A stretch of DNA of 64,000 nt from an uncultured Alphaproteobacteria bacterium (GTDB lineage: Bacteria > Pseudomonadota > Alphaproteobacteria > UBA7985 > CAJQQZ01): assembly GCA_905480575.1 (NCBI GenBank), contig CAJQQZ010000030.1, positions 3,521 through 67,520 on the forward strand. The letters run 5' to 3'. A program made the translations under genes and the position numbers. Shown in pieces: positions 8,053-32,226 of the stretch; the first letter of the stretch is position 1; each line of letters starts with the position of its first letter. Below the pieces are notes generated by a model, which saw nothing but the letters and a program-made list of their open reading frames with translations, was not told the DNA's origin and ran no database searches.

Positions 8053-9258
8053 ATGACCTCAGAAGCTTTCATCTGTGACTACATTCGCACACCCATAGGC
8101 CGCTTTGGCGGCGCTCTTTCCTCCGTCCGTGCAGACGACTTAGGGGCTATTCCCATCAAAGCTCTCATAGATCGCAATTCTGATGTCGATTGGTCAAAGG
8201 TTGACGATGTTATCTATGGCTGTGCCAACCAAGCGGGCGAAGACAATCGCAACGTTGCCCGTATGTCTGCTTTGTTGGCTGGTTTGCCAACAACGGTTCC
8301 TGGGGCTACGATCAACCGCCTTTGTGGATCGGGAATGGATGCCATCGCGATTGCGTCACGCATGATCAAATCAGGCGAAGCCGATATTGTGATTGCCGGT
8401 GGTGTTGAGTCGATGTCGCGCGCACCGTTTGTGATGCCAAAAGCCGGTTCGGCCTTTTCCCGCAATGCGGAGATCTATGACACAACACTTGGATGGCGTT
8501 TCGTCAACAAGCTAATGAAAAAACAGTACGGCATCGATTCCATGCCAGAGACTGGAGAAAATGTAGCGGAGCAATTCGGCGTCAGTCGAGAAGACCAAGA
8601 TGCTTTTGCTCTTCGAAGCCAAGAGAAAGCAGCAGCAGCGCAAGCCAACGGCCGCTTGGCTCAGGAAATTACGCCAGTGACAATACCACAGCGCAAAGGC
8701 GATCCTCTTGTTGTGGAAAAGGACGAGCATCCTCGCCTGACCTCAATCGAGAAACTCGCGTCTCTTGGAACACCATTCAAAGAGAACGGCACGGTAACCG
8801 CGGGCAATGCGTCAGGCGTAAATGATGGTTCCGCTGCCGTCATCGTGGCCTCGGAAGCCGCCATGAAGGCCTACAACCTTACACCGATCGTTCGTGTTCT
8901 TGGTGCGGCAACCGCGGGCGTTGAACCACGGATCATGGGTATCGGCCCAGCGCCAGCGTCGCAGAAACTTTGTGATCGTTTGGGTATCAAACCAACAGAG
9001 TTTGATGTCGTCGAGTTGAATGAAGCTTTTGCTGCACAAGGCATCCCAACACTTAGACAGCTCGGCATCGATGAAGCAGCAGAGCATGTCAATCCAAATG
9101 GCGGTGCCATCGCTCTCGGCCATCCACTGGGGGCATCTGGCGCCAGAATAACTGGCTCCGCTGCCTTAGAGCTGGTCAATCGCAACGCCAAGCTAGCTCT
9201 GGCCACTATGTGCATCGGCGTCGGTCAGGGCATTGCCATCGCGCTCGAACGGGTTTAG
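8053..9258 (+). CDS. pcaF: 3-oxoadipyl-CoA thiolase
   Basis: GCANQAGEDNRNVARM, INRLCGSG catalytic Cys, NEAFA, GHPLGASG, TMCIGVGQG. Confidence 0.93.
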   Translation: MTSEAFICDYIRTPIGRFGGALSSVRADDLGAIPIKALIDRNSDVDWSKVDDVIYGCANQAGEDNRNVARMSALLAGLPTTVPGATINRLCGSGMDAIAIASRMIKSGEADIVIAGGVESMSRAPFVMPKAGSAFSRNAEIYDTTLGWRFVNKLMKKQYGIDSMPETGENVAEQFGVSREDQDAFALRSQEKAAAAQANGRLAQEITPVTIPQRKGDPLVVEKDEHPRLTSIEKLASLGTPFKENGTVTAGNASGVNDGSAAVIVASEAAMKAYNLTPIVRVLGAATAGVEPRIMGIGPAPASQKLCDRLGIKPTEFDVVELNEAFAAQGIPTLRQLGIDEAAEHVNPNGGAIALGHPLGASGARITGSAALELVNRNAKLALATMCIGVGQGIAIALERV

Positions 9259-12200
9259 TTACGGAGTTCAGCGTTAATCGCCTCTCCCAGGGCTTTATGA
9301 AAAATCCCTGTCATCGGCACAGGTGATGGCAAGGCATTTCTCACAACGTCAATTGCGTTTTGGGTGATCTCTGCAGCTGCTCCCAAGGTTTCACTGGCAA
9401 AGCCTACACTCGGTCCAGCATGTTCGATAGCACCTTGTACAGCGTTGGAATTATAGGCTCCTGCCGCTGCTTCTCCGATATAACTGCCACCCGCTCCGGC
9501 TATTGTTGAACCAGCTTCCCAGCCTTTGCCACCAAGATAGGAGCGAACCGATCCGCCTGCTCCGCTGTTCCAAGCGTCATTTGCTGCCTGGCGGATGCCC
9601 GAACCAGAATTTCGACCGCCAGGCCGGACGAAGGCACCTCCGGCTTTGTTGATAAAGTCTGCCGTCCGATCACCAAACCAACCTTTCACATATTCCTCAC
9701 CTGCCGACACAAAGCCGCGCTGAAGTGCGCCTCCCACGCCACCTTCTGCATCACAGAGTTGCTCGGCTTTAGCGTAAGCCGCCGCCGTATCCTTCATCAA
9801 AAGAGAGTCTTCCGGGTTGCCTATAGCCTCCGCAACAAAACCCATCATCACTGTGGAATAGCACCAAGCTTTCATGTTCGCCCGTAGCAAAGCAATGAAG
9901 CCAGCGAGAAGATTAGCGTCCGGCACAATCCCGTAGCCGTTAACGATGGGCAATCCATAGTTAGCAATTCCAGCAAGGAGGTTGTCGAGGTTCCAGAATT
10001 CCCGCGCTATTTCTTCAACGTCTCCCTTAAGAGCTATGCCCGTCGACGTGTCATAGACACGGACATCACCTGTCTTCGGATCATAGAGCCAAGCGCTTTG
10101 GGAAGACGCATCAGACAAAAGCATCCTACTGTCTAGCATCGGATCAAAAACAGCACTTTCCAAATCATCAACTTTTTTGGGAGCCATCGATGAGGTTGTC
10201 TGCGGACTTTGACGCAATGAATGTTCGGCACTCGCAGACGTCAGGCCAGCAACAAAAGTTTCCATCTGGCCCCCTCCTCTCAACCAAGGGCCAGACCGTG
10301 GCATATCGAGCGTCATCCTTTGCGTGATTGTTTTTGAGGCTTCTTCAAACGGCCTAAATTGGCTTCGCTTAATCACTAGCTGAGGGAATGCAATCCTGCC
10401 ATAGGTTTCACCCAGCGATGTTACCGTCAAACGATTATGGCTGTTAGCTGACAACATATCTTCAAACGGCAGCCCTGGTAGGGAGTTATGGCCTATCTTA
10501 TCTGAAGCTGCCTCTTCATTACGATTGGCATCGTAGTAGTCTAACCACCGATCAAAATAGTGCGCTCCCACCAGTGAAGCGGAATAGACACCTGGCACAA
10601 AGTGCAGTTTGGTCGGACCTGCTAAGACCCATCTCGCTTCGTTTCCATCCAGTCGAACCAAGGTTCTTTCAATTGAGTTCCCTTCCGACAAATTGACTGT
10701 GAGTGCCAGGCGGGCCGGGTCAACAACTTGGTCAGATGGCACTGTAAACTCGCCTTGCGCTTTTGGATCAGAGCCGCGAACTGCAAGATTGAGAGAATGT
10801 CGATCACCGGCGCTTCCACCTTCCGAAACGAAAGATACCTCGAGTTTACCAGCTAAGCTTTGCCCTAGTTTGCGATAGGCTTGTTCGGCCTCCGAGAGAT
10901 TGCGAACACGGACAACGGAACCTGTTCCGGCATCAGCAATCTTTGCCGCTCCGGTGCTATCCTCGGGACCGACGATGATGAAGCTAACAGAGATTTGACC
11001 ATCGGCCACGCGACTAGCCAGCTTATCGATTTGAGATTTTACCTTCTTTGACTTTGGGTCAAGGCTTAGTTGACCGTCTGTAATCACCAAAATCCGAGCC
11101 TGATCATCTGACCCCAATTCGTATTCAGCAATATTGAGAGATCGCTCCACTGCATCCAAATAGGATTCAAATCCACCCAAGGGCTGTTGCCATAACTGGT
11201 CCAAGTTAGCGGCGCCTTTATCAAGAGGATCTAGCAAACGTTTCACCAAAACCTGATGGCCAAAAAGGACGACGGCCAAGGGCTGCCCCTCTGGCAATTA
11301 GTCTATCAACTTGTCACCCAGTGAAGATAGCAACTTATCTCCTTGAAAAGCGGCCATCGAACCCGAAGTGTCGGCAGACACGATTAAGGGGACCGGCGGC
11401 TCATAGCGAGATTCTACACGTACTACTCGTGGCTTACCTAGCTCTGTCAGATCCAAATGTTGCGGGAGAAGTGTCGCCGCTTGATCGGCCAAGAGGTCGA
11501 CCTTCAATGTCACGCGAGGGAAATCAGCGGTATCAACCGAGGAAATAGAGAGTCCCGATACTTTTGGTGGCTCTAGGTTTGCAAAGTCTTGTTCGGAAAT
11601 GTCAGAAACAGATTGAAAGGGCGGAACACGCCCATCGAGGCTAAACGGCTTACCTTCGACTACCTGCCCATCTGCCTGAAAGATAGGTTGCCAAAGGTTT
11701 ATGTCACTTGGGTTCAAGGGCCCCATCAAGCGTTTAGCCGTGTCTACAGCTGGCACAAAAAGGAGGTTGGCAGTGTCACCGTACGGGTCGCCTGACCATG
11801 ACAGCAAGGTCTTGCGACTGCCATTTCGCCCTTCCACAAAAAGCGAAATTGCCGACAAAGGTGCTCCTGCTGCAAAAGGTCGACTGAGCTCTGGTCGCTT
11901 CAATTCAGAACAATTTGGGTCAAAAGTGTTACCTGCTTCATCGACAAGCCAAACCCAGGTGTCTGTGTTCTGGGGGCTTGCGATTGCTTCATTCGACAGA
12001 ACATCTGTGCCCAAAATTGGGTCGAGAGCGGCCTTTTGAGCAGCCACTTCCTGCCTTATCTTTGACAGGGCTTTGGTTTGAAGCAACCATTGGCGCGCAT
12101 AGCCTTCGCCCAACGCCTCATCACCGATTCCGATACGTTCAATCAAACGATCAACACTCTGCGGCGCAGGTCGATAGCTATTGTCTTCAGGTGGTGTCGT

Positions 12201-12590
12201 CGGCCAAGTCAACCCGGCGACCGTTCTCGTTTTTAACCCTTTTTCCTTCAAAAGAGCCTGTAGAAGCAGGACCCTATCAACACCATTAGCCACCCGAGTT
12301 TTCAGCACAGTTTCTGGTTTTTGGAGATGCCCCTGATAGGATGTATAGGCGATATGATCGCTGATAAAGTCTACAAAAGCCTCAGGCTTATCAAGTACCG
12401 TAACGATTTCTGCTAGTTCAATCCCTGGGCCTAGGAGGTCAGACCGCGCCTTTTCGATCATCGGCTCCAACGGCTCTTCTGTGTCACAAGACTTAAGCAA
12501 CAGTAGAAGCAGGACAACAATCATCAATAGGGCAATACCACCGCCCAGGAGCGGTTTGGACAGGGATCTGTTTGTTCGGTTCTCGGCCAT
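9255..12590 (-). pseudogene. Large membrane-anchored protein (transglutaminase-like, VWA, Gly/Ala-rich C-terminus) interrupted by an in-frame TAA at 11298-11300
   Basis: ORFs 11298-12629 and 9255-11297 are in frame and abut: ...GAC AAG TTG ATA GAC TAA TTG CCA GAG GGG CAG. The VWA MIDAS DTSGS lies before the stop and ITDG after it. Likely start ATG 12590 with GGAG SD. Confidence 0.75.
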
Positions 12591-12600
12591 TATTCGCTCC

Positions 12601-13843
12601 CTATTCTTCTGGCTCTGGGACAGGCACACCCAAGCGTTTCAGTTTCTTGATCGAGAAGGGGTGCTTCTTCCTGGCAGCAGTCAAATAGAACTCGATGGCT
12701 TTGTCGCGGTTAGCATCAAAACCGTAGCCTTTTTCATGCATGAGCCCGAGCCAGTGGTATGAAATGACACGGCCCCCATCGGCTTGTTTCTGGAATTTCT
12801 CGGCGGCTTTCAAATAGAGGGTCTTGGCTCGCTCCGCATTTTTTGCCACTCCTGCTCCGATACGATATAGATCCGCCATTTTGAAAACGCCCCAAGCCGT
12901 ACCATGATAAGCGGCACGTCTGCACCAGTAGGCGCCGCCAACATAATCTTTAGAATAACCGTTCCATCCACCAACCAGAGCCTGTCCCAAATTTCCTTGA
13001 GAGGAAGCATTACCTTTTTCTGCCGCGAGTTTCTGGTAGCGATTACTTTTTTGGTCATTTACAGGAATGCCATAAACATCGCTCGCTAAGTACCATGCTA
13101 GGCTTGCTTGAGCGCTAACCGCTCCAGCCTCTGCTGCTCGTTCAAGCATTACCAAGCCTTGGGCACCATCCTGCTGTACGCCGTTCCCTTTGATCAAACG
13201 ACCGCCATAGTTTTCCAGCGCCCAGGGCTCGTCGGCTTCCGCCGCCTGTCTTATGAGATCGATTCCCTGAGGCTTGTCTTCGGTAACGCCCTCACCCTGT
13301 ACATAAGCATATCCCAGCGAGCTCAATCCCCAGGGATCGTTCCCACAGGCTGCTTTGTAGTACCAAGGAAAAGCGGCCTTCTCGCTCTTGAAACCCTGCA
13401 CCCCGACTAAACGCCCAACCAATGCGCTCCATTGCCGGCGCATAACCTCCTTCTGATGCAAGGGATAAGACGCTCAAGGCTTCGCTGTGATTTTCGGCGA
13501 GCTGTAGGCTAAAACCCAATTGAAAGGTTATGCGGTGATTTTCTGGTTCAAGACGATTTGCAGATTGGCAGGCCCTGACGGCTTTCATCACATCAATCTG
13601 ATCAAGATGAACGCCGGATGAGAAGACTAAATCAGGATTGGCAACTCTACCAGCTGCTTCATCACAAAGACGAAGCTCAGGCGCATCTGATTCTAACTGA
13701 GGATGCATAGAATAGTTGAAGTCATCACAATCCAAAGCCAGCGCGGTACTGCTCATCACCAACAGTGTTGAAAGGATCCAAACTGGGCTGAATTTCGATG
13801 TCTTGAAAGCCTTTCGGCTTCTGTTTATGTTAGTCTCATTCAT
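12601..13843 (-). pseudogene. Exported Sel1-repeat protein split by a frameshift at about 13387-13400
   Basis: Upstream frame: signal peptide (…MSSTALA), CDEAAG..NPD..GV..DQID..AVRAC motif, Sel1 start AMERIGWAFSRGAG. Downstream frame continues KSEKAAFPWYYKAA with further Sel1 repeats. Start ATG 13843 with GGAG SD. Confidence 0.78.
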
Positions 13844-13930
13844 CTGGCTCCGCCTCCAAAGAGTGACGCCCAGGAATTCTAATAGAGACTTTATGCCGAA
13901 ATTAAGGTCAAACAAGCAAAGCAGATCAAA

Positions 13931-15457
13931 TCAAAAATAATTCTGATCGGGCATCGAGGCTTTTCGGTTGACTATGTAAGCTTTCAACGCCTCGTCTATA
14001 CCGGGATCTAAGCCAGGATCCTCATAGTTTGCCAGCAAGCTCTTCCACTGTTCGTTTGCCCTCTGGGCCGTGTCTTTCTCACCCTCCGCCAGCCATTGCT
14101 CGAAGGAGTTGGAATCGGCAGAAGTCGGCATGTAAAAAGCGTCCTTGAAATTTTCCTGAGTATGAGCGGAACCCAGGAAATGAGATCCCGGTCCGACAGC
14201 TGCAATAGCATCCAGCGCCTGGGCATTATCGGACAAATCAATGCCTTCAAAGAAGCTTGCAACCTTGCCGCAGAGGTCAGCATCGATCATTGTCTTCTCG
14301 AACGAAGTCACCAAACCTCCCTCTAACCATCCCGTCGCGTGGTTGACGAGATTGGCACCAGCCAACATTGCCATCAACAAGCCCCAAGTGGCCTCTTGTT
14401 CAGACTGAGCGTCTGGTAATTTGGATGAAGACAAGGTTCCGACGGTATGCAACGGCACACCTAGTCGGCGTGCTAGCTGGCCAGACACCAACACCATCTT
14501 TGCAGCCTCTGGCGTACCAAAAGTTGGCGCACCGGACTGCATAGACATGGTGCTAGCGAACGAACCCATCAGGCACGGCGCGCCAGGCTTAATCAACTGC
14601 ACCAGAGCCAAGCAAGCCATCGCTTCAGCCAAAACCTGCGCTAAGGTACCTGCCACGGTGCAAGGGCTCATAGCGCCCGCCAAGGTCCAGGGCGTGCAAG
14701 CCACCGGTTGATTGTATTTTGCATAGGTTTTGAGCGCGCCAGACATATTACCGTCCATCACTAACGGGGCGTTGGTGTTGGAAACACAGTAGAGCACCGG
14801 GTTCTCCAACATGAATTCCTCACCAAAGATAATCTTTGCCATTTCAATAGCGTCCATAGCGCGCTCAGAGCCTATGAAAGCCCCCATGACCGGACGATCG
14901 GAGTAACGGATGTGGGTATAAAGCATATCGAGATGGCGTTTGTTCGCGGGTAAATCCACTGGCTCACACACCACACCACCAGAATGATGCAGATGAGGGA
15001 TCATGTGGTGAATTTTTACCAGCTTCTCAAAATCATCCAATGTTGCGTAGCGCCTGCCTTCGTCCAGGTTATGGATAAAGGGCGGACCCCAGGACGGGCA
15101 AAGAATTGTATTGTTGCCGCCGAATTCAACCGTGTTGGCCGGGTTACGCGCGTGTTGCTTGAAGGTTTTGGGCGCCGCCGCTTGAATGATCTGCCGGCAC
15201 ATCCCTGGTTCAAACCGAACCCGCACACCCTGAACGTCTGCGCCAACCTCTTTGAAGATCTCGAGCAAACTTGGGTCATCGTGAAACTCCATGCCGACTT
15301 CTTGCAGAATTTGATCGGCATTTCGTTCGATTAGACAAAGACCCTCTTCACCGAGGATGTCATAGGTCGCGAGCTTTCGATTGATGAAAGGTGCGCCCGA
15401 AATTCTTTTGATGAGAGTCCCCTCAGGTGGACGGTTTCGTCCGCTGCGCCTCGCCAT
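13931..15457 (-). CDS. Trimethylamine methyltransferase (MttB/MtgB) family protein, non-pyrrolysine
   Basis: QHARNPANTVEFGGN, SGGVVCEPVD, GAMSPCTVAGTLAQ, MQSGAPTFGTPE, HATGWLEGGL; no in-frame TAG. Confidence 0.92.
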   Translation of the reverse strand: MARRSGRNRPPEGTLIKRISGAPFINRKLATYDILGEEGLCLIERNADQILQEVGMEFHDDPSLLEIFKEVGADVQGVRVRFEPGMCRQIIQAAAPKTFKQHARNPANTVEFGGNNTILCPSWGPPFIHNLDEGRRYATLDDFEKLVKIHHMIPHLHHSGGVVCEPVDLPANKRHLDMLYTHIRYSDRPVMGAFIGSERAMDAIEMAKIIFGEEFMLENPVLYCVSNTNAPLVMDGNMSGALKTYAKYNQPVACTPWTLAGAMSPCTVAGTLAQVLAEAMACLALVQLIKPGAPCLMGSFASTMSMQSGAPTFGTPEAAKMVLVSGQLARRLGVPLHTVGTLSSSKLPDAQSEQEATWGLLMAMLAGANLVNHATGWLEGGLVTSFEKTMIDADLCGKVASFFEGIDLSDNAQALDAIAAVGPGSHFLGSAHTQENFKDAFYMPTSADSNSFEQWLAEGEKDTAQRANEQWKSLLANYEDPGLDPGIDEALKAYIVNRKASMPDQNYF

Positions 15458-15458
15458 G

Positions 15459-17876
15459 TTAACCCTGCCTCATGAGAATGTTCTCAGGATCATAAGGAGG
15501 GCGGTTCAAGATTTTAGCCTTCACTTTTTGATCCAAAATTTGAATATCAAACTCGCTTGCTGAAGCTTCAGGTTTCAACAGTGCAAGAGCCAAATGCTTT
15601 CCCACACGGTGGCCATAAGCAGCCGAGGTTACGACACCAACCGGCACGTAGTCCTGGAGAACCGAATGAGCGTAAAAAGCTTCGACTTTATGATTGGCTT
15701 CAAGCTCCAGCAAGACTGATCGCCATACTGTCGGTTTTTCGTCCCGCGCATTCATCGCCTCCTTGCCGACGAATTCTCTGCCTTCAGATTTCACCAATCC
15801 ACCAACTCCCGATTCCGCTGGTGTCCTTTCAGAAGTCAAATCAGCACCGACCGCTGGGTAGCCTTTTTCAAGACGCATCGCATTCATAGCGTAAGCACCA
15901 AAAAGGCTAATGCCGAACTCCTCACCCGCCGCCATCAAAGCCTCATAGAGAGGTTTGAGGTCTTCCAAGTGAGCATGAAGTTCCCAACCCATCTCTCCAA
16001 CATAGGAAACACGCAATGCACGAACCTCAATTCCAGCCACAGATACTTTCTTGGCAGATAACCAAGGAAACTCCAGAGCTTCATCAGTAAGCTTAGAGAG
16101 AACTGAACGCGCTGTCGGCCCCATTATCGCCAAGATGCCGAGTTCTTCGGTTCGATTCAAAATTTCTACTGAAGTGAAGTTTGCAGCATGCTTCCGCAGA
16201 ACGTCGCCATCAATACGCTCTGCCATCGCTGCACAAACCAGATAGTAACGTTCATCACTGATCTTGGTAACGGTAAATTCAGAGCAAACCCCACCGCTTG
16301 GGTAAAGCACATGGGTTAGACCAATACGACCCTCCTTTCGTGGTGGACGGTTAGAACCCAAGGTTTCGACAAAGACCGTTGCTTCAGCCCCCCTTACTTC
16401 AAACTTAGAGAAAGCAGAAAGATCAGCCAGGCCAACCTTTTCTTGCACGGCAAGACATTCCAGTTTGACCGCTTCGAACCAACCAGGGCGATTAAAGGTC
16501 AGTTCCGTTTCACTCCCTTGGTTGAAGTAATTCGGACGCTCCCATCCATAGGCGCATCCAAAGACAGCGCCTGCTGCTTTTTGATCCTCATAGATCGGGG
16601 TTAGACGTTGAAGGCGACCGGCTTCTCTTTCTTCAAAAGGATAGTGAACACCGAATTGTAATCCGAAGCATTCGATCGCCTTATCGAGGCGGTACTGCCG
16701 ATCAGCAAAAGGTCCAAACCGTCGTGAATCAACGGCCAGGGGATCCATTGGCGGCGCGCCATCAACCATCCAGTTGGCAAGGAAAGAACCAGCGCCACCA
16801 CCTTCCATAACGCCCATTGACGACCCAGTTAGCAGCCAAGCATTATCCAACCCTGTAGCTGGTCCAATCAAAGGGTTAGCATCAGGGGTAAAAGTAATCG
16901 GGCCGTTCACTACGGTCTTGATGCCAGCTGTTGCAAGTGAAGGGATACGCTCCATCGCCATCATCATGATATGTTCGATCGGCTCCAGATCAGGTGGCAA
17001 GAGCTCCATGCCAAATTCAGGTGGTACACCGTCGATTGACCAAGCTTTCGCCTTCTTCTCATAGGGCCCAATGATCATGCCGTTTCGTTCTTGCCTAACG
17101 TACCAGCTCTCTTCCGGATCACGGATGATCGCCAGCTCCGGTTCCCCAGCTTCGATACGTGCCTCAACATCGGGCACAGCATCCGTCACAACGTACTGAT
17201 GCAGCATTGGCACCACCGGCAGATCAAGCCCCATCATCGACCCAATCTCACGGCACCATGTGCCAGCAGCATTGACGATATGCTCAGCCACGATATCGCC
17301 CTTGATGGTCTTGACCAGCCACTCTCCATTCGCTGCTTTTTCGATGCCAAGCACTTCATTGTGTCGGTAGATCTCGGCTCCTCTGGATCGAGCACCGGCG
17401 GCCATGGCATTGGTCGCTAAAGTCGGATCGACGTGACCATCAAGCGGCTCATAGATGGCACCAAGAAGACCTTCTGTCTCAACAAGAGGATAGAGATCTT
17501 TCAACTCTGATGGTGACAGAAGATGGAAATCATAACCGACAAACCGACCAAGCCCCTGAACATGGCGAAACTCATCCATGCGGTCGGGGTTGCGGGCAAC
17601 CCGCAAAGCCCCCGATGGATGGAACCCGGTTTCTAGGCCCGTTTCCTTAGGCAAGATGTCCTTGTACAACCGAACCGAAGTGGCTCGCATTTCCATGATG
17701 GTCGCATTGTGTGCGAAGTGGGTGCAGAGCCCAGCGGCATGCCAGGTCGAACCCGCCGTCAGCTCATTCTTCTCAACCAACACGACATCAGACCAGCCAC
17801 GCTTCGTCAGATGGTAGAGGAGAGAGACACCCATAGCGCCACCGCCGATAATCACAACTCTTGCGTGGGTTTTCAT
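15459..17876 (-). CDS. GcvT-family FAD-dependent dehydrogenase (dimethylglycine/sarcosine dehydrogenase-like)
   Basis: GxGxxG (IIGGGAMG), LTAGSTWHAAG covalent-flavin His, NGPITFTPD, RVSYVGEMGWELH, MRLEKGY folate-binding domain. Confidence 0.92.
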   Translation of the reverse strand: MKTHARVVIIGGGAMGVSLLYHLTKRGWSDVVLVEKNELTAGSTWHAAGLCTHFAHNATIMEMRATSVRLYKDILPKETGLETGFHPSGALRVARNPDRMDEFRHVQGLGRFVGYDFHLLSPSELKDLYPLVETEGLLGAIYEPLDGHVDPTLATNAMAAGARSRGAEIYRHNEVLGIEKAANGEWLVKTIKGDIVAEHIVNAAGTWCREIGSMMGLDLPVVPMLHQYVVTDAVPDVEARIEAGEPELAIIRDPEESWYVRQERNGMIIGPYEKKAKAWSIDGVPPEFGMELLPPDLEPIEHIMMMAMERIPSLATAGIKTVVNGPITFTPDANPLIGPATGLDNAWLLTGSSMGVMEGGGAGSFLANWMVDGAPPMDPLAVDSRRFGPFADRQYRLDKAIECFGLQFGVHYPFEEREAGRLQRLTPIYEDQKAAGAVFGCAYGWERPNYFNQGSETELTFNRPGWFEAVKLECLAVQEKVGLADLSAFSKFEVRGAEATVFVETLGSNRPPRKEGRIGLTHVLYPSGGVCSEFTVTKISDERYYLVCAAMAERIDGDVLRKHAANFTSVEILNRTEELGILAIMGPTARSVLSKLTDEALEFPWLSAKKVSVAGIEVRALRVSYVGEMGWELHAHLEDLKPLYEALMAAGEEFGISLFGAYAMNAMRLEKGYPAVGADLTSERTPAESGVGGLVKSEGREFVGKEAMNARDEKPTVWRSVLLELEANHKVEAFYAHSVLQDYVPVGVVTSAAYGHRVGKHLALALLKPEASASEFDIQILDQKVKAKILNRPPYDPENILMRQG

Positions 17877-17879
17877 TGG

Positions 17880-20318
17880 CTAACCTCTCACTCGTTCATT
17901 CCGGGGATCGAAAGCCGCAGCCGCTAGTGGTTCGAGTTCAAAACGTTGCCCGGCTATTGAGATTTCAAATTGAGCCTTACGATAATTTTTTAGACTCATA
18001 CCGACGGGTGTTTTGACCGATGCGAAACAGATGGATTTGCCCGTCCTAAAACCTCGCCCGCCTGATGTGGTTTGGCCGACAAGCTTCCCATTGCGGAAGA
18101 TCGGCTCATCATGCAGCAACAAGGGATGGCCGCCTTTGACGGCAAAGGTTAACAGCCGTCGATCAACGCCAGAACTTTTCTGTTCAACCAGAGCCTTGCG
18201 ACCAAGGAAATCACCTTTGTCCCAATCAATCGTGAAACCTAGCCCGGCATTCAATGGCGTATCTTCTGTCCCAATGTCATGGCCCCAGTGTTTATAGCCT
18301 TTTTCCAGGCGACAAGCATCCAACGCCAGATGGCCAACATGGGCTAAAACGTGATCTTTCCCTGCCGCAACCAATTGTTCATAAACGGAAGCTGCCTGTT
18401 CTGCAGGAATGTAAAGCTCCCACCCTAGCTCTCCAACAAAGGACACACGCGTTGCTCTGACCCGGTTCATGCCCAAGGCAATTTCCTTTGACGTGGAGAA
18501 CGGGAACGCCTCAAAAGAAAGGTCTGTATTCGTCAGTCTTTCCAGGAGAGCTCTACTCATTGGACCCATCAGGCCAAGAACCGCTTCTGACGAAGTCGAA
18601 TCCGTTACTATCACCTCGTGATTCTTTGCTTGCCTTTCCAGCCAAGCCAGATCTTTCCATCGCGTGGCCGCGCCAGAGACAATCCGGAAATGGTTGTCGG
18701 AAAATCTAGTGACCGTTATGTCCGCTTCGATGCCACCCTGTTCATTCAGCATCTGTGTGTAGACGGCTGTCCCGTCAGAAACATCAATATTGGAAGTGCA
18801 AAGATACAGAAGCATCTGCAGGGCCTGTGGCCCTCGAATGTCCAATTTAGTGAAGGGACTGAGTTCCAACAAACCAACACCAGAGCTCATAGCTTGAACT
18901 TCGCGCTTAGCCATTGGCCACCAATGTTGATCCTCGTAGGAATAGCGTAGGCTCTCTTCTTCTGCACTTTGCGCAAACCATAGTGGCAGTTCCCATCCCG
19001 TTGGTGCACCAAAGAAAGCGCCAGCGGCAGCAAATTGCTCATGCAGAACTGAGCGCTGTAACCCTCGGCCAGCTTTGGCTTGCTTGAGAGGCCAGTGTGT
19101 GCCGAACACGTCTCCAACTGCTTCTTTCATACGTTCCACAAGGTAGGGGCCTTGGCCAGACGTTCGGTGAAATCTCGCGATGTCAACGTCCCAAAGATCG
19201 AAAGGCGCCTGGCTGTCCCTCACCCATTCGGCCATGGCCTTTCCGACACCTGCGGAAGACATCATACCCACTGAATTCATACCTGCCGCTAAGAAGAAGC
19301 CCTTGAGAAAAGGCGATTCACCCAACAAAGGACGGCTGTCCGGTGTGAATGATTCCGGCCCGTTCATGAAGTGCTGGATACCTGTTCGTTCAAGAGCTGG
19401 TAGTCGGTTTAGGCCGCCAGCCATAAAATGCTCAAATTGATTCCAGTCCTCGGGCAGTTCCAAGAACGCGCGATCTCCTTCTGGCCCGTAGGCCTCCCAG
19501 GGCTTGGCGTTGTATTCGAACCCACCTAGAACCAGTTTCCCAGTGTCACCCTTGATGTAAATTCCACCGTCTAGATCACGGAGGATTGGGAAAGGGTTGG
19601 GCAATTCAGGCATCGCTTCGGTGACCACATACATGTGCTCGACGGCCTGTAGTGGCACAGGGACACCAGCCATTTCACCCAGTCTCTGCGACCAAGCGCC
19701 AGCGCACACAACCACCTTTTCGCAAGAAATTTCCTCACCTGTCGAAAGCGTGAGGCCCCGAACCTGTCCGTTATGTCGATGAAATGCCGAGCATGCTGTG
19801 TCTTCTCGGATTTCTATTCCGGCGGCCCGCACTGCTTTGGTATAGGCCATACAGATATCAACCGGCGTGGCTTGACCGTCTTCAGCAACATAAAGGCCGC
19901 CAACCAGATCATCGGTTCTAAGATAGCTCGCTTGTTCTTTGATTTCGTCAGGTGTCACGAGATGGGCATCCATAGCCATCATACCACCAACGTCTGCTAT
20001 CCTTGCCAATTCGATCATGCGCTCTTGAGATTTGGTTAGCCAAAATCCACCCGTGCGCTTGTACCCCGTTGTTTGGCCGGTCTCTTCTTCTAAAGCAGGA
20101 AATAGTTCTGTGGCATATGACGCAAGCTTTGTGCCGTTCACAGAGGCACGTAATGGTCCAACGATGCCAGCAGCGTGCCAGGAGGTACCAGAAGTGAGCT
20201 TGTTACGTTCGATCAGCAGAACATCCGTGATGCCTAGCTTTAAGAGATGATAAGCAACCGAGAGGCCGATGATCCCACCGCCAATGATAACAATTTCTCG
20301 GTCCTGAGTTTTAGCCAC
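17880..20318 (-). CDS. GcvT-family FAD-dependent dehydrogenase (sarcosine/dimethylglycine dehydrogenase-like); probable GTG start at 20318
   Basis: IIGGGIIG, LTSGTSWHAAG, NGPESFTPD, RVSFVGELGWELY, CRLEKGY. Confidence 0.92.
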   Translation of the reverse strand: MAKTQDREIVIIGGGIIGLSVAYHLLKLGITDVLLIERNKLTSGTSWHAAGIVGPLRASVNGTKLASYATELFPALEEETGQTTGYKRTGGFWLTKSQERMIELARIADVGGMMAMDAHLVTPDEIKEQASYLRTDDLVGGLYVAEDGQATPVDICMAYTKAVRAAGIEIREDTACSAFHRHNGQVRGLTLSTGEEISCEKVVVCAGAWSQRLGEMAGVPVPLQAVEHMYVVTEAMPELPNPFPILRDLDGGIYIKGDTGKLVLGGFEYNAKPWEAYGPEGDRAFLELPEDWNQFEHFMAGGLNRLPALERTGIQHFMNGPESFTPDSRPLLGESPFLKGFFLAAGMNSVGMMSSAGVGKAMAEWVRDSQAPFDLWDVDIARFHRTSGQGPYLVERMKEAVGDVFGTHWPLKQAKAGRGLQRSVLHEQFAAAGAFFGAPTGWELPLWFAQSAEEESLRYSYEDQHWWPMAKREVQAMSSGVGLLELSPFTKLDIRGPQALQMLLYLCTSNIDVSDGTAVYTQMLNEQGGIEADITVTRFSDNHFRIVSGAATRWKDLAWLERQAKNHEVIVTDSTSSEAVLGLMGPMSRALLERLTNTDLSFEAFPFSTSKEIALGMNRVRATRVSFVGELGWELYIPAEQAASVYEQLVAAGKDHVLAHVGHLALDACRLEKGYKHWGHDIGTEDTPLNAGLGFTIDWDKGDFLGRKALVEQKSSGVDRRLLTFAVKGGHPLLLHDEPIFRNGKLVGQTTSGGRGFRTGKSICFASVKTPVGMSLKNYRKAQFEISIAGQRFELEPLAAAAFDPRNERVRG

Positions 20319-20386
20319 GGTCCCACCTGAGCTTCGATACAACCAAGACACCTAAGGTCAAAAGAAGATTGCTGTCAAAGTCAAAA

Positions 20387-20800
20387 TTACGACCGATTTG
20401 TGATTGTCACTAATCCCTGTTCAGGATCAACAGTGACGTGATCACCCGATTGGATCAAAGCCGTCACGTCGCCGTCCTCAAATCTATCAACCATCGGCAG
20501 ACCGGCCAAAGCTGCACCCTGGACCAGGATAGTGTTGGCCGCGTTAAAAATAATGGCCTTTGGCGTAATACCTCTGGACTTCATTTCGTGTAACATCCAG
20601 GCTGAAGCAACGCCGCCTTTAGCGGTATTGAAAACCAAAATCTTACCATCATAAGACTGGCCATGGAGTTTGTGAGCAGGCCTGGAGAAAACACCATTAA
20701 TGCGGTCCAGGTCATAGCGTGCGGAGAAATCATCTGACGTTACTAAGGCTTCTCCTTCGACCTTTGGGCCGAACCCTTTGTGACACTTGAGCTCTATCAT
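20387..20800 (-). CDS. Aconitase X swivel (small) subunit, DUF126
   Basis: GPKVEGEALV, HKLHGQSYDGKILVF..AKGG, PKAIIF; ATG at 20800 overlaps the stop of the large subunit (ATGA). Confidence 0.85.
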   Translation of the reverse strand: MIELKCHKGFGPKVEGEALVTSDDFSARYDLDRINGVFSRPAHKLHGQSYDGKILVFNTAKGGVASAWMLHEMKSRGITPKAIIFNAANTILVQGAALAGLPMVDRFEDGDVTALIQSGDHVTVDPEQGLVTITNRS

Positions 20801-22041
20801 TGAACGATCTCCCCAGCCACAGCAGACGCAATACAATCCTCCATCGAAGCCAAAGCAGGCCGATAGCCGTAGCCTCCCAAAATGTTCACGATCTTAGTTG
20901 AGTTCGACAACAGTCGCTTCCACCCATTGGCCTCACCAATCTCGCGGGCGTATTGTTGGTAGAAGCAGGTGCCTTGCAGCACTTTTCCGCCAAAAGCTTC
21001 TATAGCATCGTTGTAGCGCATCCGTTGAGCATCCGCATAAACAGAGGGCGCCGTGCAAACAATTAGAGCCGTATCTTGATGCCTTCTTCGATCTCGGCAT
21101 AGACCCGCGACTTGCTGCATTTCCACCAAAGAAAGCTGCGGTGCCGCGAAGACCACAACATCAACTTTCTCCCCTTTGGCTCCGAATGGAGCGCGCAAGG
21201 CGGAAATGTCTTCGCTTGTGATCGTCTCGGCAGCCAGTTTTTCACCGCCTACGTCCTTGAGGCTGTGGCACTCTGGTGTGATCCCTACGATGTGGAATAG
21301 TGGCGTTGAACCGTAGGAGGCCATAGCCGCTCCAAAATGCTTGATTTCGTCCGAGGTTGGGACGCTTTCAATGCCTTCAATCACCGGTACTTCCCAATAG
21401 GAACCTGCCTGCTTTCCAATGGTAGCACCCAGTACCCCCCAGTCTGTCAACTCCCCGGGTTGCTCCGTCACTCGGTAGCGTTTGGTCGCTTGCCGGTGTT
21501 TGTCAAGGTGCAATCCATAGCGCGGTGTCCGCCCCGTTAAACCGGCCGCTAAAGCCGACGGCCCGCCCTCAAAATTGGACCGCGCCCCGCAAACCGAATT
21601 TGAGTAAATCACCACCCCAGTATCGCCGTAAGCCACATGGTCACCCAAAACCGGCGGCATAATGGTTTGATAGTTGATGCAGGTATCCGTCATCATGATC
21701 CCTAGTTTTTCGCAAGCAGCCACAAATCGACGCTCAAGATTAGCCATCTCTTCTGTCTGGCCCAAAGGATCATAGTAGGACAAATCCACACCACGCGGAT
21801 CGGTAATCATGGGTATGGCTACCTTGCGTTCTAACACTGAAAGTTCAGCGAACTGCTCAACAAAGGCGACGCCCGCTTCACCGAGAGATTCCGGGTCCGC
21901 CATCATATGGGCCTGGCTGACAGCAACCATATCTTCTGCGTCAAACATGCCACCAACCTGCTTCTGATGCTCGATTGCCCACTGTCGTGCTGGGCCCATT
22001 TCGCCCGCCAACATGGCTCGTTCTTTTTCTGATAATTTCAT
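20797..22041 (-). CDS. Aconitase X catalytic (large) subunit, DUF521
   Basis: MKLSEKERAMLAGEMG, TCINY, VIYSNSVCGARSNFEGGPSALAAGLTGRTPRYGLH, FHIVGITPE, APQLSL; Cys in TCINY, VCT and GTC. Confidence 0.88.
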   Translation of the reverse strand: MKLSEKERAMLAGEMGPARQWAIEHQKQVGGMFDAEDMVAVSQAHMMADPESLGEAGVAFVEQFAELSVLERKVAIPMITDPRGVDLSYYDPLGQTEEMANLERRFVAACEKLGIMMTDTCINYQTIMPPVLGDHVAYGDTGVVIYSNSVCGARSNFEGGPSALAAGLTGRTPRYGLHLDKHRQATKRYRVTEQPGELTDWGVLGATIGKQAGSYWEVPVIEGIESVPTSDEIKHFGAAMASYGSTPLFHIVGITPECHSLKDVGGEKLAAETITSEDISALRAPFGAKGEKVDVVVFAAPQLSLVEMQQVAGLCRDRRRHQDTALIVCTAPSVYADAQRMRYNDAIEAFGGKVLQGTCFYQQYAREIGEANGWKRLLSNSTKIVNILGGYGYRPALASMEDCIASAVAGEIVQ

Positions 22042-22174
22042 TCTGCAAACTCCCAAGCCTAAGTATCTACCGCGTGAAATGACCGATTCAAGTCAAATAT
22101 GAAACAAGTTAAAACAACCCTTGATTGATGAGCGCTGGATTTTAAGTTATCGTTTTGTTTAGGAGGGCACAGCC

Positions 22175-23044
22175 ATGATTAGAAGCACTTGGTTATTTTT
22201 CTTCATTTGTACAACTTCTGTACTTGTTTTAGGAAGCGATACACTCTTCGCGACAGAGCACCCCCATGAGGATCCAAACACCAATCCCAAATTAGCCGAA
22301 ATCTTTGCCTGGTTAACTGTTGCTGTCGTGCTGATGGAAAACGCATTCGCTGTAATTTTTAACTCCAGGTTCTTTCTCATTTTCTTCAGCCGAAAAGGCC
22401 TACGGTCCCTCATCATTATCCTGGGGTCATCGTTGGTTGTTTGGAAATTCAATTTGGATATCTTTGCGGATCTCTTCAATGCTGTGGTCCCAGACAAACC
22501 AATTGATAGGGGCTTTTTTTCAGGCTTCTTAAGTGCCCTCACTCTCAGCGGCGGTAGCGCGAGTCTACACACCCTGATGACCAAACTTTCAATTCGCTCC
22601 GACAGAACCGACGTGGAGGAAAAGCCTGAAAGCGGCAAAGCTTGGATAGTAGTGAGAGCCGCCGGGTTGTTGCCCAATCAAAGTTTGATGGTTGAGTTAA
22701 ATGAGATTGCTACCCCAGAAGACGCCGATGCCAAACAAACCCATCATGTCGTTGGAATGTGCCGTGCCAGACAAAAACCCTGGCCACTGATCAAAGACTA
22801 CTTTTTATCAAGGAGCGATCGGTTTCCAAGAAATGGTGGTTACGAAGTCAAACCGGACACGACTTACAAAATTTGGGTCGCGAAATTCGACGGCGACCAA
22901 CCCAACAGACCTGCCAATTGGCAACTATTAAACGATTCACTTTTCACATTCGAATCCAGAGCAATTCTAGATTTTGATATAAAAGAAAGTTTCTTCACAT
23001 CAGACCCGATTACGCCCCCCAAAGATCCCAAAACAGAGAGCTGA
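22175..23044 (+). CDS. Hypothetical membrane protein (N-terminal hydrophobic segment, about 3 TM helices, soluble C-terminal domain)
   Basis: 289-aa ORF with GGAGG SD directly upstream; hydrophobic segments and LSALTLSGGSASLH motif. Confidence 0.7.
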   Translation: MIRSTWLFFFICTTSVLVLGSDTLFATEHPHEDPNTNPKLAEIFAWLTVAVVLMENAFAVIFNSRFFLIFFSRKGLRSLIIILGSSLVVWKFNLDIFADLFNAVVPDKPIDRGFFSGFLSALTLSGGSASLHTLMTKLSIRSDRTDVEEKPESGKAWIVVRAAGLLPNQSLMVELNEIATPEDADAKQTHHVVGMCRARQKPWPLIKDYFLSRSDRFPRNGGYEVKPDTTYKIWVAKFDGDQPNRPANWQLLNDSLFTFESRAILDFDIKESFFTSDPITPPKDPKTES

Positions 23045-23076
23045 GTTTCGGTAACAGGGCGAGCGAAAATACACTG

Positions 23077-24384: not shown

Positions 24385-25788
24385 CTACATCATCTCACTT
24401 TGAACTTCCTGGATCGCTTTATCCAAGATATCAAAGAGTTCGTCGATCTCATCTTTCTGAATAATCAAAGGGGGCGAGAAAACACATAGATTAAAGATCG
24501 GGCGCACAATGAGCCCCATCTCCTCGCACTTTGCATCGACGCGGTAGCCGAAATCAGTATCGATCGCCAAGCGCTTTTCCTCAGGCAGATCCGGTGCCGC
24601 AGTTCCTTCGACACAACCAACCAAACCCATCCCTCTGGCGTTACCAATGATGTCATGACGAACGAGATCTTTGAGGCGTTCCTGGAAATGTGGCGTCAGC
24701 TCCCGGACATGTTCTAACAAGCCGTCGCGTTCTATGATTTCAATATTCTTGAGAGCCGCCGCACAGCAAATTGGGTGGCCGGAGTAGGTGAAACCGTTGG
24801 AGAAGGTGGCAACATAATCCTCACTCTCATCACCAATATCATTCATCAATCGATCAGATATGATCGCGGCGCCCAATGGCTGATACCCCGATGTTAAACC
24901 TTTCGCACAGGTGATGATGTCAGGAACAATATCAAACACAGGCTCTGAGGCAAACCAATGGCCCAAGCGGCCGAAACCTGTCACGACTTCATCAGAAATG
25001 TAGAGGACATCGTGTTTGCGGCAGATTTCCAAGCAGCGCTTGTGATAACCTGGCGGCGGTACAATCACACCACCGGAAGCCAAAAGTGGTTCCGCAATAA
25101 ACGCAGCTACTTTGTCAGCACCGGCATCCAATATGGCGCTTTCTAAGTCCACAATTTTTGCATCACACCAGTCTTCAACTGACATACCACTTGGTCGAAC
25201 ATAAGGATTTACATCTGATAGGAACCGCACCAGATGTTCCGCTGTATCCATGTGCGATTTATCGCGTGCCTTACCCGATACAGAAGCCGCCAGGTAAGTT
25301 GAACCGTGATAACCGCGTTCCCTGGCGATCACTAGCTTCTTTTCCGGGCGGCCCTTGAGATTATTATAAAAATGAACGAAACGAAGCGCCGTATCAACTG
25401 CCTCTGACCCACCATTGGTCAGGAACACGCGATTGAGATCACCAGGAGCGAATTCAGCGATTTTTCGCGACAAAACAGACGCGGGCTCAGCCGCCATCCC
25501 GAATGGGTTGAAATAAGGCAACGCCATCGCCTGTTCAGCAATCGCATCCGCCATTTCTTGGTTGCCGTAGCCAATTTGAACGCACCACATACCACCAGGG
25601 CCGTCGATGTAGCGCTTACCATCGGGGCCAATCAAATGGATGCCTTCGCCTCTCGCTACAATCGTGCGATTGGGATCATCGCCACCTACGCCATTCCAAG
25701 GGTGAATAAAATGTTCATTGTCCCAATCACGGATGTCGTCAGGACTGACACCATTGTGTTGGCTATTTACCTGTGCTTCTAAAGACAT
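24385..25788 (-). CDS. Class III (omega-amino) aminotransferase
   Basis: DGPGGMWCVQIGYG, RGYHGSTY, FIAEPLLASGGV, DEVVTGFGRLG, ITCAKGLTSGY. Confidence 0.92.
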   Translation of the reverse strand: MSLEAQVNSQHNGVSPDDIRDWDNEHFIHPWNGVGGDDPNRTIVARGEGIHLIGPDGKRYIDGPGGMWCVQIGYGNQEMADAIAEQAMALPYFNPFGMAAEPASVLSRKIAEFAPGDLNRVFLTNGGSEAVDTALRFVHFYNNLKGRPEKKLVIARERGYHGSTYLAASVSGKARDKSHMDTAEHLVRFLSDVNPYVRPSGMSVEDWCDAKIVDLESAILDAGADKVAAFIAEPLLASGGVIVPPPGYHKRCLEICRKHDVLYISDEVVTGFGRLGHWFASEPVFDIVPDIITCAKGLTSGYQPLGAAIISDRLMNDIGDESEDYVATFSNGFTYSGHPICCAAALKNIEIIERDGLLEHVRELTPHFQERLKDLVRHDIIGNARGMGLVGCVEGTAAPDLPEEKRLAIDTDFGYRVDAKCEEMGLIVRPIFNLCVFSPPLIIQKDEIDELFDILDKAIQEVQSEMM

Positions 25789-30399: not shown

Positions 30400-31332
30400 T
30401 TAGTCGAGTGCAGCGTCCAATTCAGGGACCGCATCAAACAAATCAGCAACAAGACCGTAGTCAGCAACCTGAAAAATAGGTGCTTCTTCATCTTTGTTGA
30501 TCGCTACGATGACTTTAGAGTCTTTCATACCAGCCAAGTGCTGGATAGCGCCAGAAATACCAACAGCGATGTAGAGGTCAGGTGCAACCACCTTACCTGT
30601 CTGACCAACCTGGTAGTCGTTAGGCACATAACCGGCGTCAACCGCAGCACGAGATGCACCCACAGCAGCGCCAAGTTTGTCAGCAATCTTGTCCAGCATA
30701 GCGAAGTTTTCGCCATTCTGCATACCTCGACCACCTGAGATAACGATCTTAGCAGATGTCAATTCTGGACGGTCAGAAGATGAAAGCTCTTCACCGACAA
30801 ATGAAGACATGCCCGCATCACCCGCGCTTGAGAATGCCTCAACAGTGGCAGAGCCACCTTCCGCAGCCGCCGCTTCAAATGACGTCGCACGTACTGTCAC
30901 GACCTTCACAGAATCAGTAGACTGGACAGTTGCGATAGCGTTACCAGCGTAGATTGGACGCTCAAAAGTATCAGAAGAAACGATTGCTGAAATGTCTGAA
31001 ATTGGCTGAACATCCATCAAAGCACCAACACGTGGCAGCAGGTTTTTGCCGTATGTGGTGGCTGGAGCAAGCACGTGTGTCATGCCTTCCGCAGCGGCAA
31101 CAACCGTTGGCGCAATGTTTTCAGCAAGGCCATTACCAAGCTCAGCAGCGTCAGCATGAAGAACTCTCGAAACACCAGCAACTTTAGCCGCTTCTTCAGC
31201 AACAGCAGCGGAACCAGAACCCGCAACCAAAACCGCGATGTCGCCACCGATTTCGGCAGCAGCAGCAATTGTGTTCAACGTCGCTGGCTGAAGCGCAGCA
31301 TTGTCATGATCTGCAACAACTAGAATGCCCAT
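30400..31332 (-). CDS. etfA: Electron transfer flavoprotein alpha subunit
   Basis: [47 protein letters not shown]. Confidence 0.97.
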
Positions 31333-31334
31333 GA

Positions 31335-32084
31335 TTATATCACCTTTGCTTCGTTCTTGAGTTTATCAACCAGTTCAGCAACAGAACCAACGATCACGCC
31401 AGCTGCACGGGCAGCAGGCTCTTCAACCTTCACTGTGTTCACACGTGGTGTTGTATCCACGCCGAGATCAGCAGGAGTCATCGCATCGATTGGCTTCTTC
31501 TTTGCCTTCATGATGTTTGGCAGCGACGCATAACGAGGCTCGTTCAAACGAAGATCAACAGTCAAAACAGCAGGAAGGTTGATTTTAACATTCTCAAGAC
31601 CCGCATCAACTTCACGAGTGATCGTCGCTTCGCCGTCACCGACTTCGAGATTCGAAATGAATGTACCTTGTGGCCAACCCATCAGCGCGGAAAGGATCTG
31701 GCCAGTTTGGTTGTTGTCGCCGTCAATGGCTTGCTTGCCAACGATTACGATGCCAGGCTCTTCTTTCGCGATCACTTCTTTCAGAAGTTTTGCAATCGCA
31801 AGGGGCTGAAGCTCATCATCAGTGTTAACGTGAATGCCACGATCCGCGCCCATAGCGAGTGCAGTACGGATAGTTTCCTGACACTGCTGGACACCAAGAG
31901 AAACCGCAATCACTTCGCTGGCTGTACCAGCTTCTTTCAAGCGAATGGCTTGCTCAACTGCAATCTCGTCAAAGGGGTTCATTGACATCTTGACGTTTGC
32001 CAATTCAACGCCTGACTGATCGGGCTTAACGCGTATTTTCACGTTGTAATCAACAACGCGCTTAACGCAGACCAAAACTTTCAT
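31335..32084 (-). CDS. etfB: Electron transfer flavoprotein beta subunit (start ATG 32084)
   Basis: [51 protein letters not shown]. Confidence 0.97.
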
Positions 32085-32226
32085 TTCTAGTCCTTTCGGG
32101 GATGATAAGAAAAAGCCCTCGGGAAAAGCTACACGTTGTCCGTTGGGCACCTCAATTTGGCGCGGACACTAGGAGGGGTCTTAAAGTGAGTCAATACTAT
32201 CCGCGACGTTGCGATATAAATTCGCG

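Follow-up and report, generated by a model that had tools for sequence, protein, structure and literature searches.

A stretch of 64,000 nucleotides from contig CAJQQZ010000030.1 of an uncultured alphaproteobacterium, hereafter called the window, carries five intact open reading frames (ORFs), arranged one behind the other on the minus strand from 22041 to 13931 in the order AcnXL-AcnXS-DH1-DH2-MttB. Two of them code for the subunits of an aconitase X (AcnX), two for flavoproteins of the dimethylglycine dehydrogenase (DMGDH) and sarcosine dehydrogenase (SarDH) type, and the last for a methyltransferase of the MttB superfamily. The genes are listed below in the direction of transcription.

20797..22041, minus strand: AcnX large (catalytic) subunit, AcnXL, 414 amino acids (aa), PF04412 at 372 bits
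20387..20800, minus strand: AcnX small (swivel) subunit, AcnXS, 137 aa, PF01989 at 90 bits
17880..20318 (or from 20351), minus strand: DH1, DMGDH/SarDH-like flavoprotein, Pfam DAO-FAO_M-GCV_T-GCV_T_C
15459..17876, minus strand: DH2, second DAO-GcvT flavoprotein, Pfam DAO-FAO_M-GCV_T-GCV_T_C
13931..15457, minus strand: MttB, non-pyrrolysine (non-Pyl) superfamily methyltransferase of what we call the His clade, PF06253 at 671 bits

A first-pass annotation had proposed these five same-strand genes, their tight junctions and their assignment to AcnX large and small subunits, two DAO-GcvT dehydrogenases and a non-Pyl MttB; all of this was borne out, the families by their Pfam scores. AcnXL and AcnXS share a 4-nt ATGA overlap, read in the sequence, and the subunits are translationally coupled. 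The gap between AcnXS and DH1 is 68 nt when DH1 starts with the GTG at 20318 and 35 nt with the GTG at 20351. The former is the likely start, because an AGGTGG box precedes it and the alignments of relatives begin there. DH1 and DH2 are separated by 3 nt, and DH2 and MttB by 1 nt.

Separate adjoining genes for a PF04412 large and a PF01989 small subunit define the pair as a two-subunit type II AcnX. MttB is an uninterrupted ORF of 508 codons without an in-frame UAG, and its PF06253 match covers profile positions 2-500, which is the full-length match of a non-Pyl member of the superfamily. DH1 and DH2 are about 800 aa each and 31% identical to one another. Their domain architecture, together with their similarity to the rat and human DMGDH structures 4p9s/5l46 (444 bits for DH1, 610 bits for DH2), makes both DMGDH/SarDH-type enzymes. 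NCBIfam has no equivalog model for this type.

The co-occurrence of the AcnX pair and DH1-DH2-MttB was evaluated in both directions. A scan with AcnXL, using one genome per species, gave 80 loci at 74-86% identity, and three contig look-ups (L133, L134 and L136) brought the set to 83 distinct loci. The taxa of the 80 genome loci include Hyphomicrobiaceae, Filomicrobium, Paracoccaceae, Rhodospirillales, Puniceispirillaceae and Granulosicoccaceae, and AcnXS directly follows AcnXL in nearly all of them. Only one of the 80, L001, which is the closest relative of the window, carries orthologous DH1-DH2-MttB. A third five-gene instance was found in the metagenome contig L134, where AcnXL, DH1 and DH2 are 85%, 78% and 81% identical to those of the window. 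The orthologous trio is present at these two of the 83 AcnXL loci, both from the window's own clade.

In the reverse direction, scanning metagenomes with MttB and looking up three contigs resulted in 37 loci with an MttB of at least 67% identity. An orthologous dehydrogenase lies alongside in 30 of the 37, and both dehydrogenases in 21; dehydrogenases are present in 12 of the 13 loci having at least 5 kb on both sides. A class-III phospho-lyase-like enzyme was found in 20/37 and a LysR gene in 13/37, and AcnX at none of the 37. Outside the window's clade the AcnX pair and the demethylation trio are unlinked, at 81 of 83 AcnX loci and at all 37 MttB loci. The first-pass claim that the five genes form a single pathway for a hydroxylated N-methyl compound does not survive this test of co-conservation outside that clade, a lack of co-conservation being among the refuting outcomes that the annotation itself had listed.

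DH1-DH2-MttB appears to be a shortened copy of a widespread, uncharacterised demethylation module. The canonical unit consists of a LysR gene, the trio in the order DH-DH-MttB or MttB-DH-DH, and a class-III pyridoxal phosphate (PLP) enzyme (AGXT2L/ETNPPL-like), and it was found in a metagenome-assembled genome, in Mesorhizobium and in Roseovarius albus. The instances are as follows.

L081 2600-11566: canonical module
L082 2508-11563: canonical module
L083 8931-17642: canonical module
About 25 metagenome loci (L084-L125): canonical module

The best solved relative of the module's class-III enzyme is the human ethanolamine-phosphate phospho-lyase 6tor (296 bits). DH1 orthologues standing alongside MttB orthologues are 47-64% identical to DH1, DH2 orthologues within canonical modules are 56-70% identical to DH2, and the window MttB is 79% identical to the canonical-module MttBs. 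In the MttB tree the window sequence nests in the module-bearing clade with support 100/99; its nearest neighbours, at a weak support of 85/67, come from loci ordered phospho-lyase-like < LysR < > DH1 > DH2 > MttB. Of the canonical module, the window has the His-type MttB and both adjacent DAO-GcvT genes, and its 64 kb contain no LysR gene and no phospho-lyase-like homologue above 27% identity. A class-III aminotransferase elsewhere in the window was considered as the module's usual deaminating enzyme and rejected, as it belongs to a different subfamily (PRK07036). The L081 module carries an extra Sulfotransfer_5 gene, and the Mesorhizobium module is followed by an OpuAC-type ABC transporter / binding protein.

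Mutagenesis and a ligand-bound structure have identified Tyr97, Phe356, His348 and Arg312 as the glycine betaine site of D. hafniense MtgB (DhMtgB), where Arg312 binds the carboxylate (PMC13080624). The window MttB scores 605 bits against structure 4yyc and 372 bits against DhMtgB, and its alignment with DhMtgB pairs Trp123/Tyr97, His373/His348, His337/Arg312 and Gly381/Phe356. An aromatic residue and the histidine are kept, and the arginine and the phenylalanine are replaced. A histidine occupies the Arg312 position in 35 of 35 readable MttB orthologues, while paralogues of 37-56% identity in the same loci keep the arginine. Because the carboxylate-binding Arg312 is replaced by His337, we infer that the substrate is probably a non-carboxylate, choline-type quaternary amine, perhaps a choline ester.

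The closest described system for the trio is the aerobic glycine betaine demethylation by MtgBCD(E) in Ruegeria pomeroyi and other marine bacteria, in which DMGDH/SarDH-type enzymes take over afterwards. In aerobic marine bacteria MtgB is found with shared MtgC and MtgD encoded elsewhere, and several MtgB paralogues are present (PMC12478193). The window resembles this system in having a non-Pyl PF06253 methyltransferase without a corrinoid gene beside it, adjoining DAO-GcvT dehydrogenases, a regional electron transfer flavoprotein (ETF) and FolD, and a marine alphaproteobacterial host. It differs in the histidine and glycine at the Arg312 and Phe356 positions and in the company that its MttB orthologues keep, which travel with a phospho-lyase-like enzyme and LysR; the window has the AcnX pair instead. 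Therefore, the substrate of the window MttB is probably not glycine betaine.

For the AcnX pair, two activities are known within the family. Types I and IIa are cis-3-hydroxy-L-proline dehydratases and the archaeal type IIb is a mevalonate-5-phosphate dehydratase; bacterial types IIc-IIf are without the landmark residues of either activity and are functionally uncharacterised (PMC8184944). A search of the literature on DUF521/DUF126 and aconitase X returned no characterised bacterial type IIc-IIf enzyme. The first-pass statement that the substrate of bacterial two-subunit AcnX is not established holds for the AcnX of the window, but it is incorrect for type IIa.

The best matches to solved structures are with the type IIb enzymes TkAcnX/ApAcnX (7cnr/7cns; PMC8184944), which also have two subunits, at 195 bits for the large and 64 bits for the small subunit. 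AcnXL is closer to TkAcnX 7cnr than to AtAcnX 7cnp (115 bits). The LhpI equivalog NF051439, with a cutoff of 700 bits, is not passed, AcnXL scoring 203.7 and AcnXS 28.9 bits. In TkAcnX numbering, two cluster ligands are conserved, Cys110 (C121) and Cys342 (C359), and the third, Cys283, is replaced by Ala300, leaving two of the three cysteines of the type IIb cluster; the position of AtAcnX Cys510 is Tyr361. The catalytic, carboxylate-binding Lys361 is kept as K383. The differences from type IIb are that Glu129-Ser130-Ser131 (E-S-S/N) has become Asp140-Thr141-Gly142 (D-T-G), that Tyr365 has become Ile387, and that the phosphate loop (Gly48-Val49-Ser50, Asn53) is missing, the window reading M47-A48-(gap)-D49...S52. 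Furthermore, the host is a bacterium without a mevalonate-pathway context.

With AtAcnX, a dehydratase of cis-3-hydroxy-L-proline, the pair shares the AcnX fold and the bacterial origin, and with type IIa the two-subunit organisation in which only two cluster cysteines are kept. All residues of the cis-3-hydroxyproline site are replaced, namely (AtAcnX numbering) Asp203 by Met47, Ile206 by Pro50, Thr72 by Ala65, Trp35 by Arg28 and Ser70 by Gly63, and hydroxyproline genes are lacking nearby. In AtAcnX, Asp203 binds the ring nitrogen of the substrate and Ser70 is the general base (PMC8184944). The general-base serine, Ser62(S) in TkAcnX, corresponds to Gly63 of AcnXS within the motif K61-G-G-V-A-(S/T)66, and Arg28 replaces Leu27 of TkAcnX or Trp35 of AtAcnX, a residue contacting the distal part of the substrate. 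AcnXS was aligned with TkAcnX-S and AF0055, and the call of glycine for serine is robust because this alignment is gap-free between the flanking ILVF and PKAII blocks. On these landmark residues, both cis-3-hydroxyproline dehydratase and mevalonate-5-phosphate dehydratase were rejected as the activity of the pair.

The residues D140-T141-G142, C121, A300, C359, Y361, K383 and I387 are invariant in 72 AcnXL orthologues, and Gly63 and Arg28 in 52 AcnXS orthologues. In a search of AcnXL against 1.8 billion representative sequences, its close family forms one 50% cluster. The D-T-G motif with C121, A300, C359, Y361 and K383 is shared by about 17 neighbouring representative clusters at 39-60% identity, whereas more distant AcnX clusters have the E-S-S signature and three cysteines; the sequences therefore form a distinct D-T-G clade of type II, which on its active-site residues would be neither a cis-3-hydroxyproline nor a mevalonate-5-phosphate dehydratase. 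Types IIc-IIf (Watanabe et al. 2021) are likewise two-subunit, bacterial and landmark-free, and were matched to the window by description only. Cys329 as the missing third cluster ligand was unsupported, being invariant in the close family and not across the D-T-G clade.

Elsewhere, AcnX mostly neighbours genes for the transport and catabolism of organic acids. The 127 genes immediately flanking AcnX pairs gave 124 Pfam families, of which the commonest are the MR/MLE enolase (11), the 2-oxoacid dehydrogenase E1-beta (9) and TctC (6), followed by gamma-glutamyltranspeptidase (GGT), SHMT-like and SdhB-like proteins with 4 each; DAO/GCV_T was counted only twice. Recurrent contexts are TctABC-GntR-enolase-AcnX-SdhBCDA-like-TtdAB-like, E1alpha/beta-AcnX-ADH-TRAP, and a thiamine diphosphate (ThDP) decarboxylase with AcnX (8 loci). 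AcnX orthologues of 75-86% identity sit in such TTT/TRAP/enolase/SDH-like operons. A DAO-sized ORF beside AcnX in L045 was found to be a Lon protease instead. A longer operon of this kind is located as follows.

L133 2317-11422; also L014, L015, L019, L022, L025, L026, L028: long AcnX operon of Filomicrobium and other Hyphomicrobiaceae

The L133 operon is of the TctABC-GntR-enolase-AcnX-SDH-like kind, with the full order TctABC-GntR, MR/MLE enolase-AcnXL-AcnXS-SdhB-like protein-two Sdh_cyt subunits-SdhA/TfrA-like flavoprotein-TtdA/TtdB-like Fe-S hydro-lyase, and it represents an uncharacterised pathway for the oxidation of organic acids. Genes for a DUF3604-like protein and a ThDP enzyme are found near operons of this type. 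Since the carboxylate-binding lysine is conserved, Arg28 is invariant and the gene contexts are those of organic acids, the substrate of the AcnX pair would be a beta-hydroxy acid bearing one further anionic group, a poly-carboxylate or sulfo-carboxylate, and not an N-methyl compound. In the loci L008/L017/L018/L020 and L003/L004/L009 the AcnX neighbours are of another type, GGT and a 503-aa SHMT-like protein, or a protein of the glutamine-synthetase-like type; such recurrent neighbours may be a sign that some AcnX contexts involve amine or gamma-glutamyl chemistry.

Within the window's clade, L001 has a co-directional row of omega-transaminase-IlvA-GMC (choline-dehydrogenase-like)-PrpD/MmgE-ThDP decarboxylase-AcnXL-AcnXS-DH1-DH2-MttB, and beyond MttB it has the same thiolase and hydrolase as the window. 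L134 has a different upstream gene, so that AcnXL-AcnXS-DH1-DH2-MttB is precisely the content common to the three. When the window is compared with L001, the nonsynonymous divergence (dN) of all five genes is 0.05-0.18 and the synonymous divergence (dS) is saturated; the block is therefore old and each of its genes is constrained. MttB is 94% identical between the two.

Directly after the AcnXS stop lies an intergenic element, TTTGnC-TTTGACAG, with a direct-repeat-like appearance.

20350..20386, minus strand: intergenic element TTTGnC-TTTGACAG of the window
L001 11586-11640 and L134 2303-2360: the same motif in the relatives

The motif is invariant in the three lineages although dS is saturated, and it is not found in the LysR-DH1 spacers of canonical modules. 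It includes a perfect TTGACA hexamer at 20378-20373, with a weak -10-like element 16-17 nt downstream (in the window TTAGGT, at 17 nt). A promoter consensus scan did not call the element, the -10 being weak. A terminator between AcnXS and DH1 was rejected, as the fold is no better than that of shuffled sequences (z = -0.06) and the scan calls no intergenic terminator. The TTGACA element may be regarded as a candidate internal promoter or operator for DH1-DH2-MttB that took over upon the loss of LysR.

The surroundings of the block in the window contain the following features.

22042..23076: 1-kb segment of 46% GC with an ORF at 22175-23044 (plus strand), replacing the GMC-PrpD/MmgE-ThDP stretch of L001
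23077..25788, minus strand: IlvA (threonine ammonia-lyase) and PRK07036-type omega-transaminase, NF006390 552 (cutoff 421) and NF005447 655 (cutoff 618)
30400..32150, minus strand: ETF alpha and beta subunits, Pfam ETF / ETF_alpha
9255-13915, minus strand: Sel1 / transglutaminase-like / VWA block (a Sel1/transglutaminase-like pseudogene block) between MttB and the thiolase

The ORF at 22175-23044 codes for 289 aa, is membrane-like and has no Pfam or NCBIfam family; metatranscriptome contigs map to the segment. The closest solved structures of the class-III enzyme at 24385-25788 are omega-transaminases, and the adjoining PLP enzyme is a genuine IlvA. Both genes are syntenic with L001, and by tblastn they are absent from canonical MttB modules and from the upstream flank of L134. 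The L001 counterpart of the 9255-13915 block is a single 263-aa ORF (L001 18100-18891), and the insertion is therefore specific to the window's lineage. Nearby, a DUF3095 gene is split at 6002-7211 (plus strand) into two ORFs that overlap, with 6002-6661 matching profile positions 1-170 and 6558-7211 positions 171-378; this is a frameshift, due either to a pseudogene or to an assembly error.

DMGDH and SarDH reduce ETF. At 30400-32796 (minus strand), 8 kb from the MttB and dehydrogenase genes, the ETF beta and alpha genes precede one for a PduO-type cob(I)alamin adenosyltransferase, which fits the chemistry proposed here, and by analogy this ETF is the probable electron acceptor of DH1 and DH2. 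FolD is also encoded within the 64 kb, which contain no corrinoid protein and no methylcobalamin:tetrahydrofolate methyltransferase. Each of the five genes is covered in part by short metatranscriptome contigs of 99-100% identity, and three of these contigs cross the AcnXL/AcnXS overlap. The source bacterium belongs to uncultured marine plankton and is present in many metagenomes.

Taken as a whole, we consider it rather probable that the five genes represent two independent modules, each conserved on its own and each uncharacterised, whose juxtaposition is lineage-specific. The His-clade MttB would move the first methyl group from a choline-type quaternary amine to a corrinoid protein whose gene lies elsewhere, from which it would pass to tetrahydrofolate (THF). 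DH1 and DH2 would then take the second and third methyl groups oxidatively as 5,10-methylene-THF and deliver their electrons to the ETF encoded 8 kb away; that MttB and the two DAO-GcvT enzymes remove three N-methyl groups serially, as the first-pass annotation had suggested, is plausible. AcnXL-AcnXS would act separately, as an Fe-S hydro-lyase dehydrating or hydrating a dianionic beta-hydroxy acid. The AcnX pair may have displaced the divergent unit of LysR and phospho-lyase that stood upstream of DH1 in an ancestor of this clade, and DH1-DH2-MttB probably kept or gained a promoter or operator of its own, the TTGACA box, plus some read-through from AcnX.

Several observations weigh against such a juxtaposition. 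Three lineages share the order of the five genes despite saturated synonymous sites and with purifying selection on every gene, and it is therefore no fleeting accident. Neither the cluster nor the rest of the window contains the phospho-lyase-like gene or LysR, and AcnX might replace them. At some AcnX loci the neighbours are SHMT-like, GlnA-like or GGT genes. The AcnXS/DH1 junction is crossed by one metatranscriptome contig of 277 nt (20198-20474, 100% identical); since the metatranscriptome contigs are without strand information and may include DNA, those spanning junctions are weak evidence for read-through from AcnX into DH1. Finally, at relaxed thresholds a paralogous MttB (L052, L076, L136) or a full-length DAO-GcvT protein (L058) lies within 10 kb of AcnX, the one in L136 being 37% identical and 2.5 kb away. 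L056 gave weak partial GcvT-like matches only. These are 4 of the remaining 81 AcnX loci (about 5%), which would be similar to the chance expectation in genomes with several MttB paralogues.

Several of these observations support an integrated pathway, in which a trimethylammonium acid with a hydroxyl group (carnitine-like, hydroxyproline-betaine-like or some other algal osmolyte) would lose three methyl groups and have its beta-hydroxy-acid skeleton dehydrated by AcnX. The tight spacing with its ATGA overlap, an order that the window, L001 and L134 have kept although dS is saturated, in a stable and perhaps co-transcribed block, and the transcript contig over the AcnXS-DH1 junction are all in its favour, as are a cluster without the canonical deaminating enzyme and the four other loci with paralogous MttB or dehydrogenase genes near AcnX. 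We nevertheless regard it as unlikely. AcnX is found at 0/37 MttB-orthologue loci and the orthologous dehydrogenase and MttB genes are missing at 81/83 AcnX loci, and the four paralogue cases are at the chance level given several MttB paralogues per genome, up to seven (PMC12478193). Being 79% identical to the canonical-module MttBs, the window MttB probably has their substrate, and it is without the carboxylate-binding arginine, whereas the chemistry of AcnX needs a carboxylate. Furthermore, Met47 of the window stands where cis-3-hydroxyproline dehydratase has its aspartate for binding the amine nitrogen, and AcnX orthologues of 75-86% identity belong to organic-acid operons.

A narrower form of functional linkage is that the D-T-G AcnX was recruited into the quaternary-amine pathway of this clade, where it either replaces the phospho-lyase-like step or acts on a hydroxylated anionic trimethylammonium skeleton. 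This we hold to be quite unlikely.

We are very doubtful of a plain glycine betaine route, in which MtgB is followed by dimethylglycine dehydrogenase and sarcosine dehydrogenase with AcnX as an unrelated neighbour. The 610 bits of DH2 against mammalian DMGDH agree with it, as do the genes for the later demethylations often found near mtgB in marine bacteria (PMC12478193) and the OpuAC-type binding protein after the Mesorhizobium module. It conflicts with His337 for Arg312 and Gly381 for Phe356 at an experimentally defined site (PMC13080624), the more so as paralogues keeping the arginine exist in the same collections, and with the co-conservation of an ethanolamine-phosphate-phospho-lyase-like enzyme that would be superfluous for glycine. 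Decay of the locus, in which it would have lost LysR and the phospho-lyase-like gene, as well as GMC-PrpD-ThDP in comparison with L001, and the adjacency would be functionally meaningless, might account for the foreign-looking insertions on both sides (22042-23076 and 9255-13915) and for the split DUF3095 gene, but it is highly improbable with five intact ORFs, dN far below saturated dS, all five genes represented in metatranscriptome contigs and an MttB 94% identical to the L001 copy.

Under the juxtaposition that we favour, the fusion of AcnX with a demethylation module is new but local to one marine alphaproteobacterial clade, and each of the two modules is an uncharacterised variant of enzyme families already known. 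A single pathway, if true, would be a new osmolyte catabolic route, which the evidence does not favour, and recruitment of AcnX, if true, would give an undescribed route and the first substrate for an AcnX type without the canonical serine base. What remains are two well-delimited enzyme modules that are abundant in the sea. The His-clade MttB/two-dehydrogenase module probably gives aerobic marine bacteria a cobalamin-dependent route for a choline-type compound. The D-T-G AcnX is 75-86% identical across Alpha- and Gammaproteobacteria and, unlike the known enzymes, has no catalytic serine and has one cluster cysteine fewer. The window's clade, in which both modules are fused, is a natural experiment and a convenient place for testing whether they interact.

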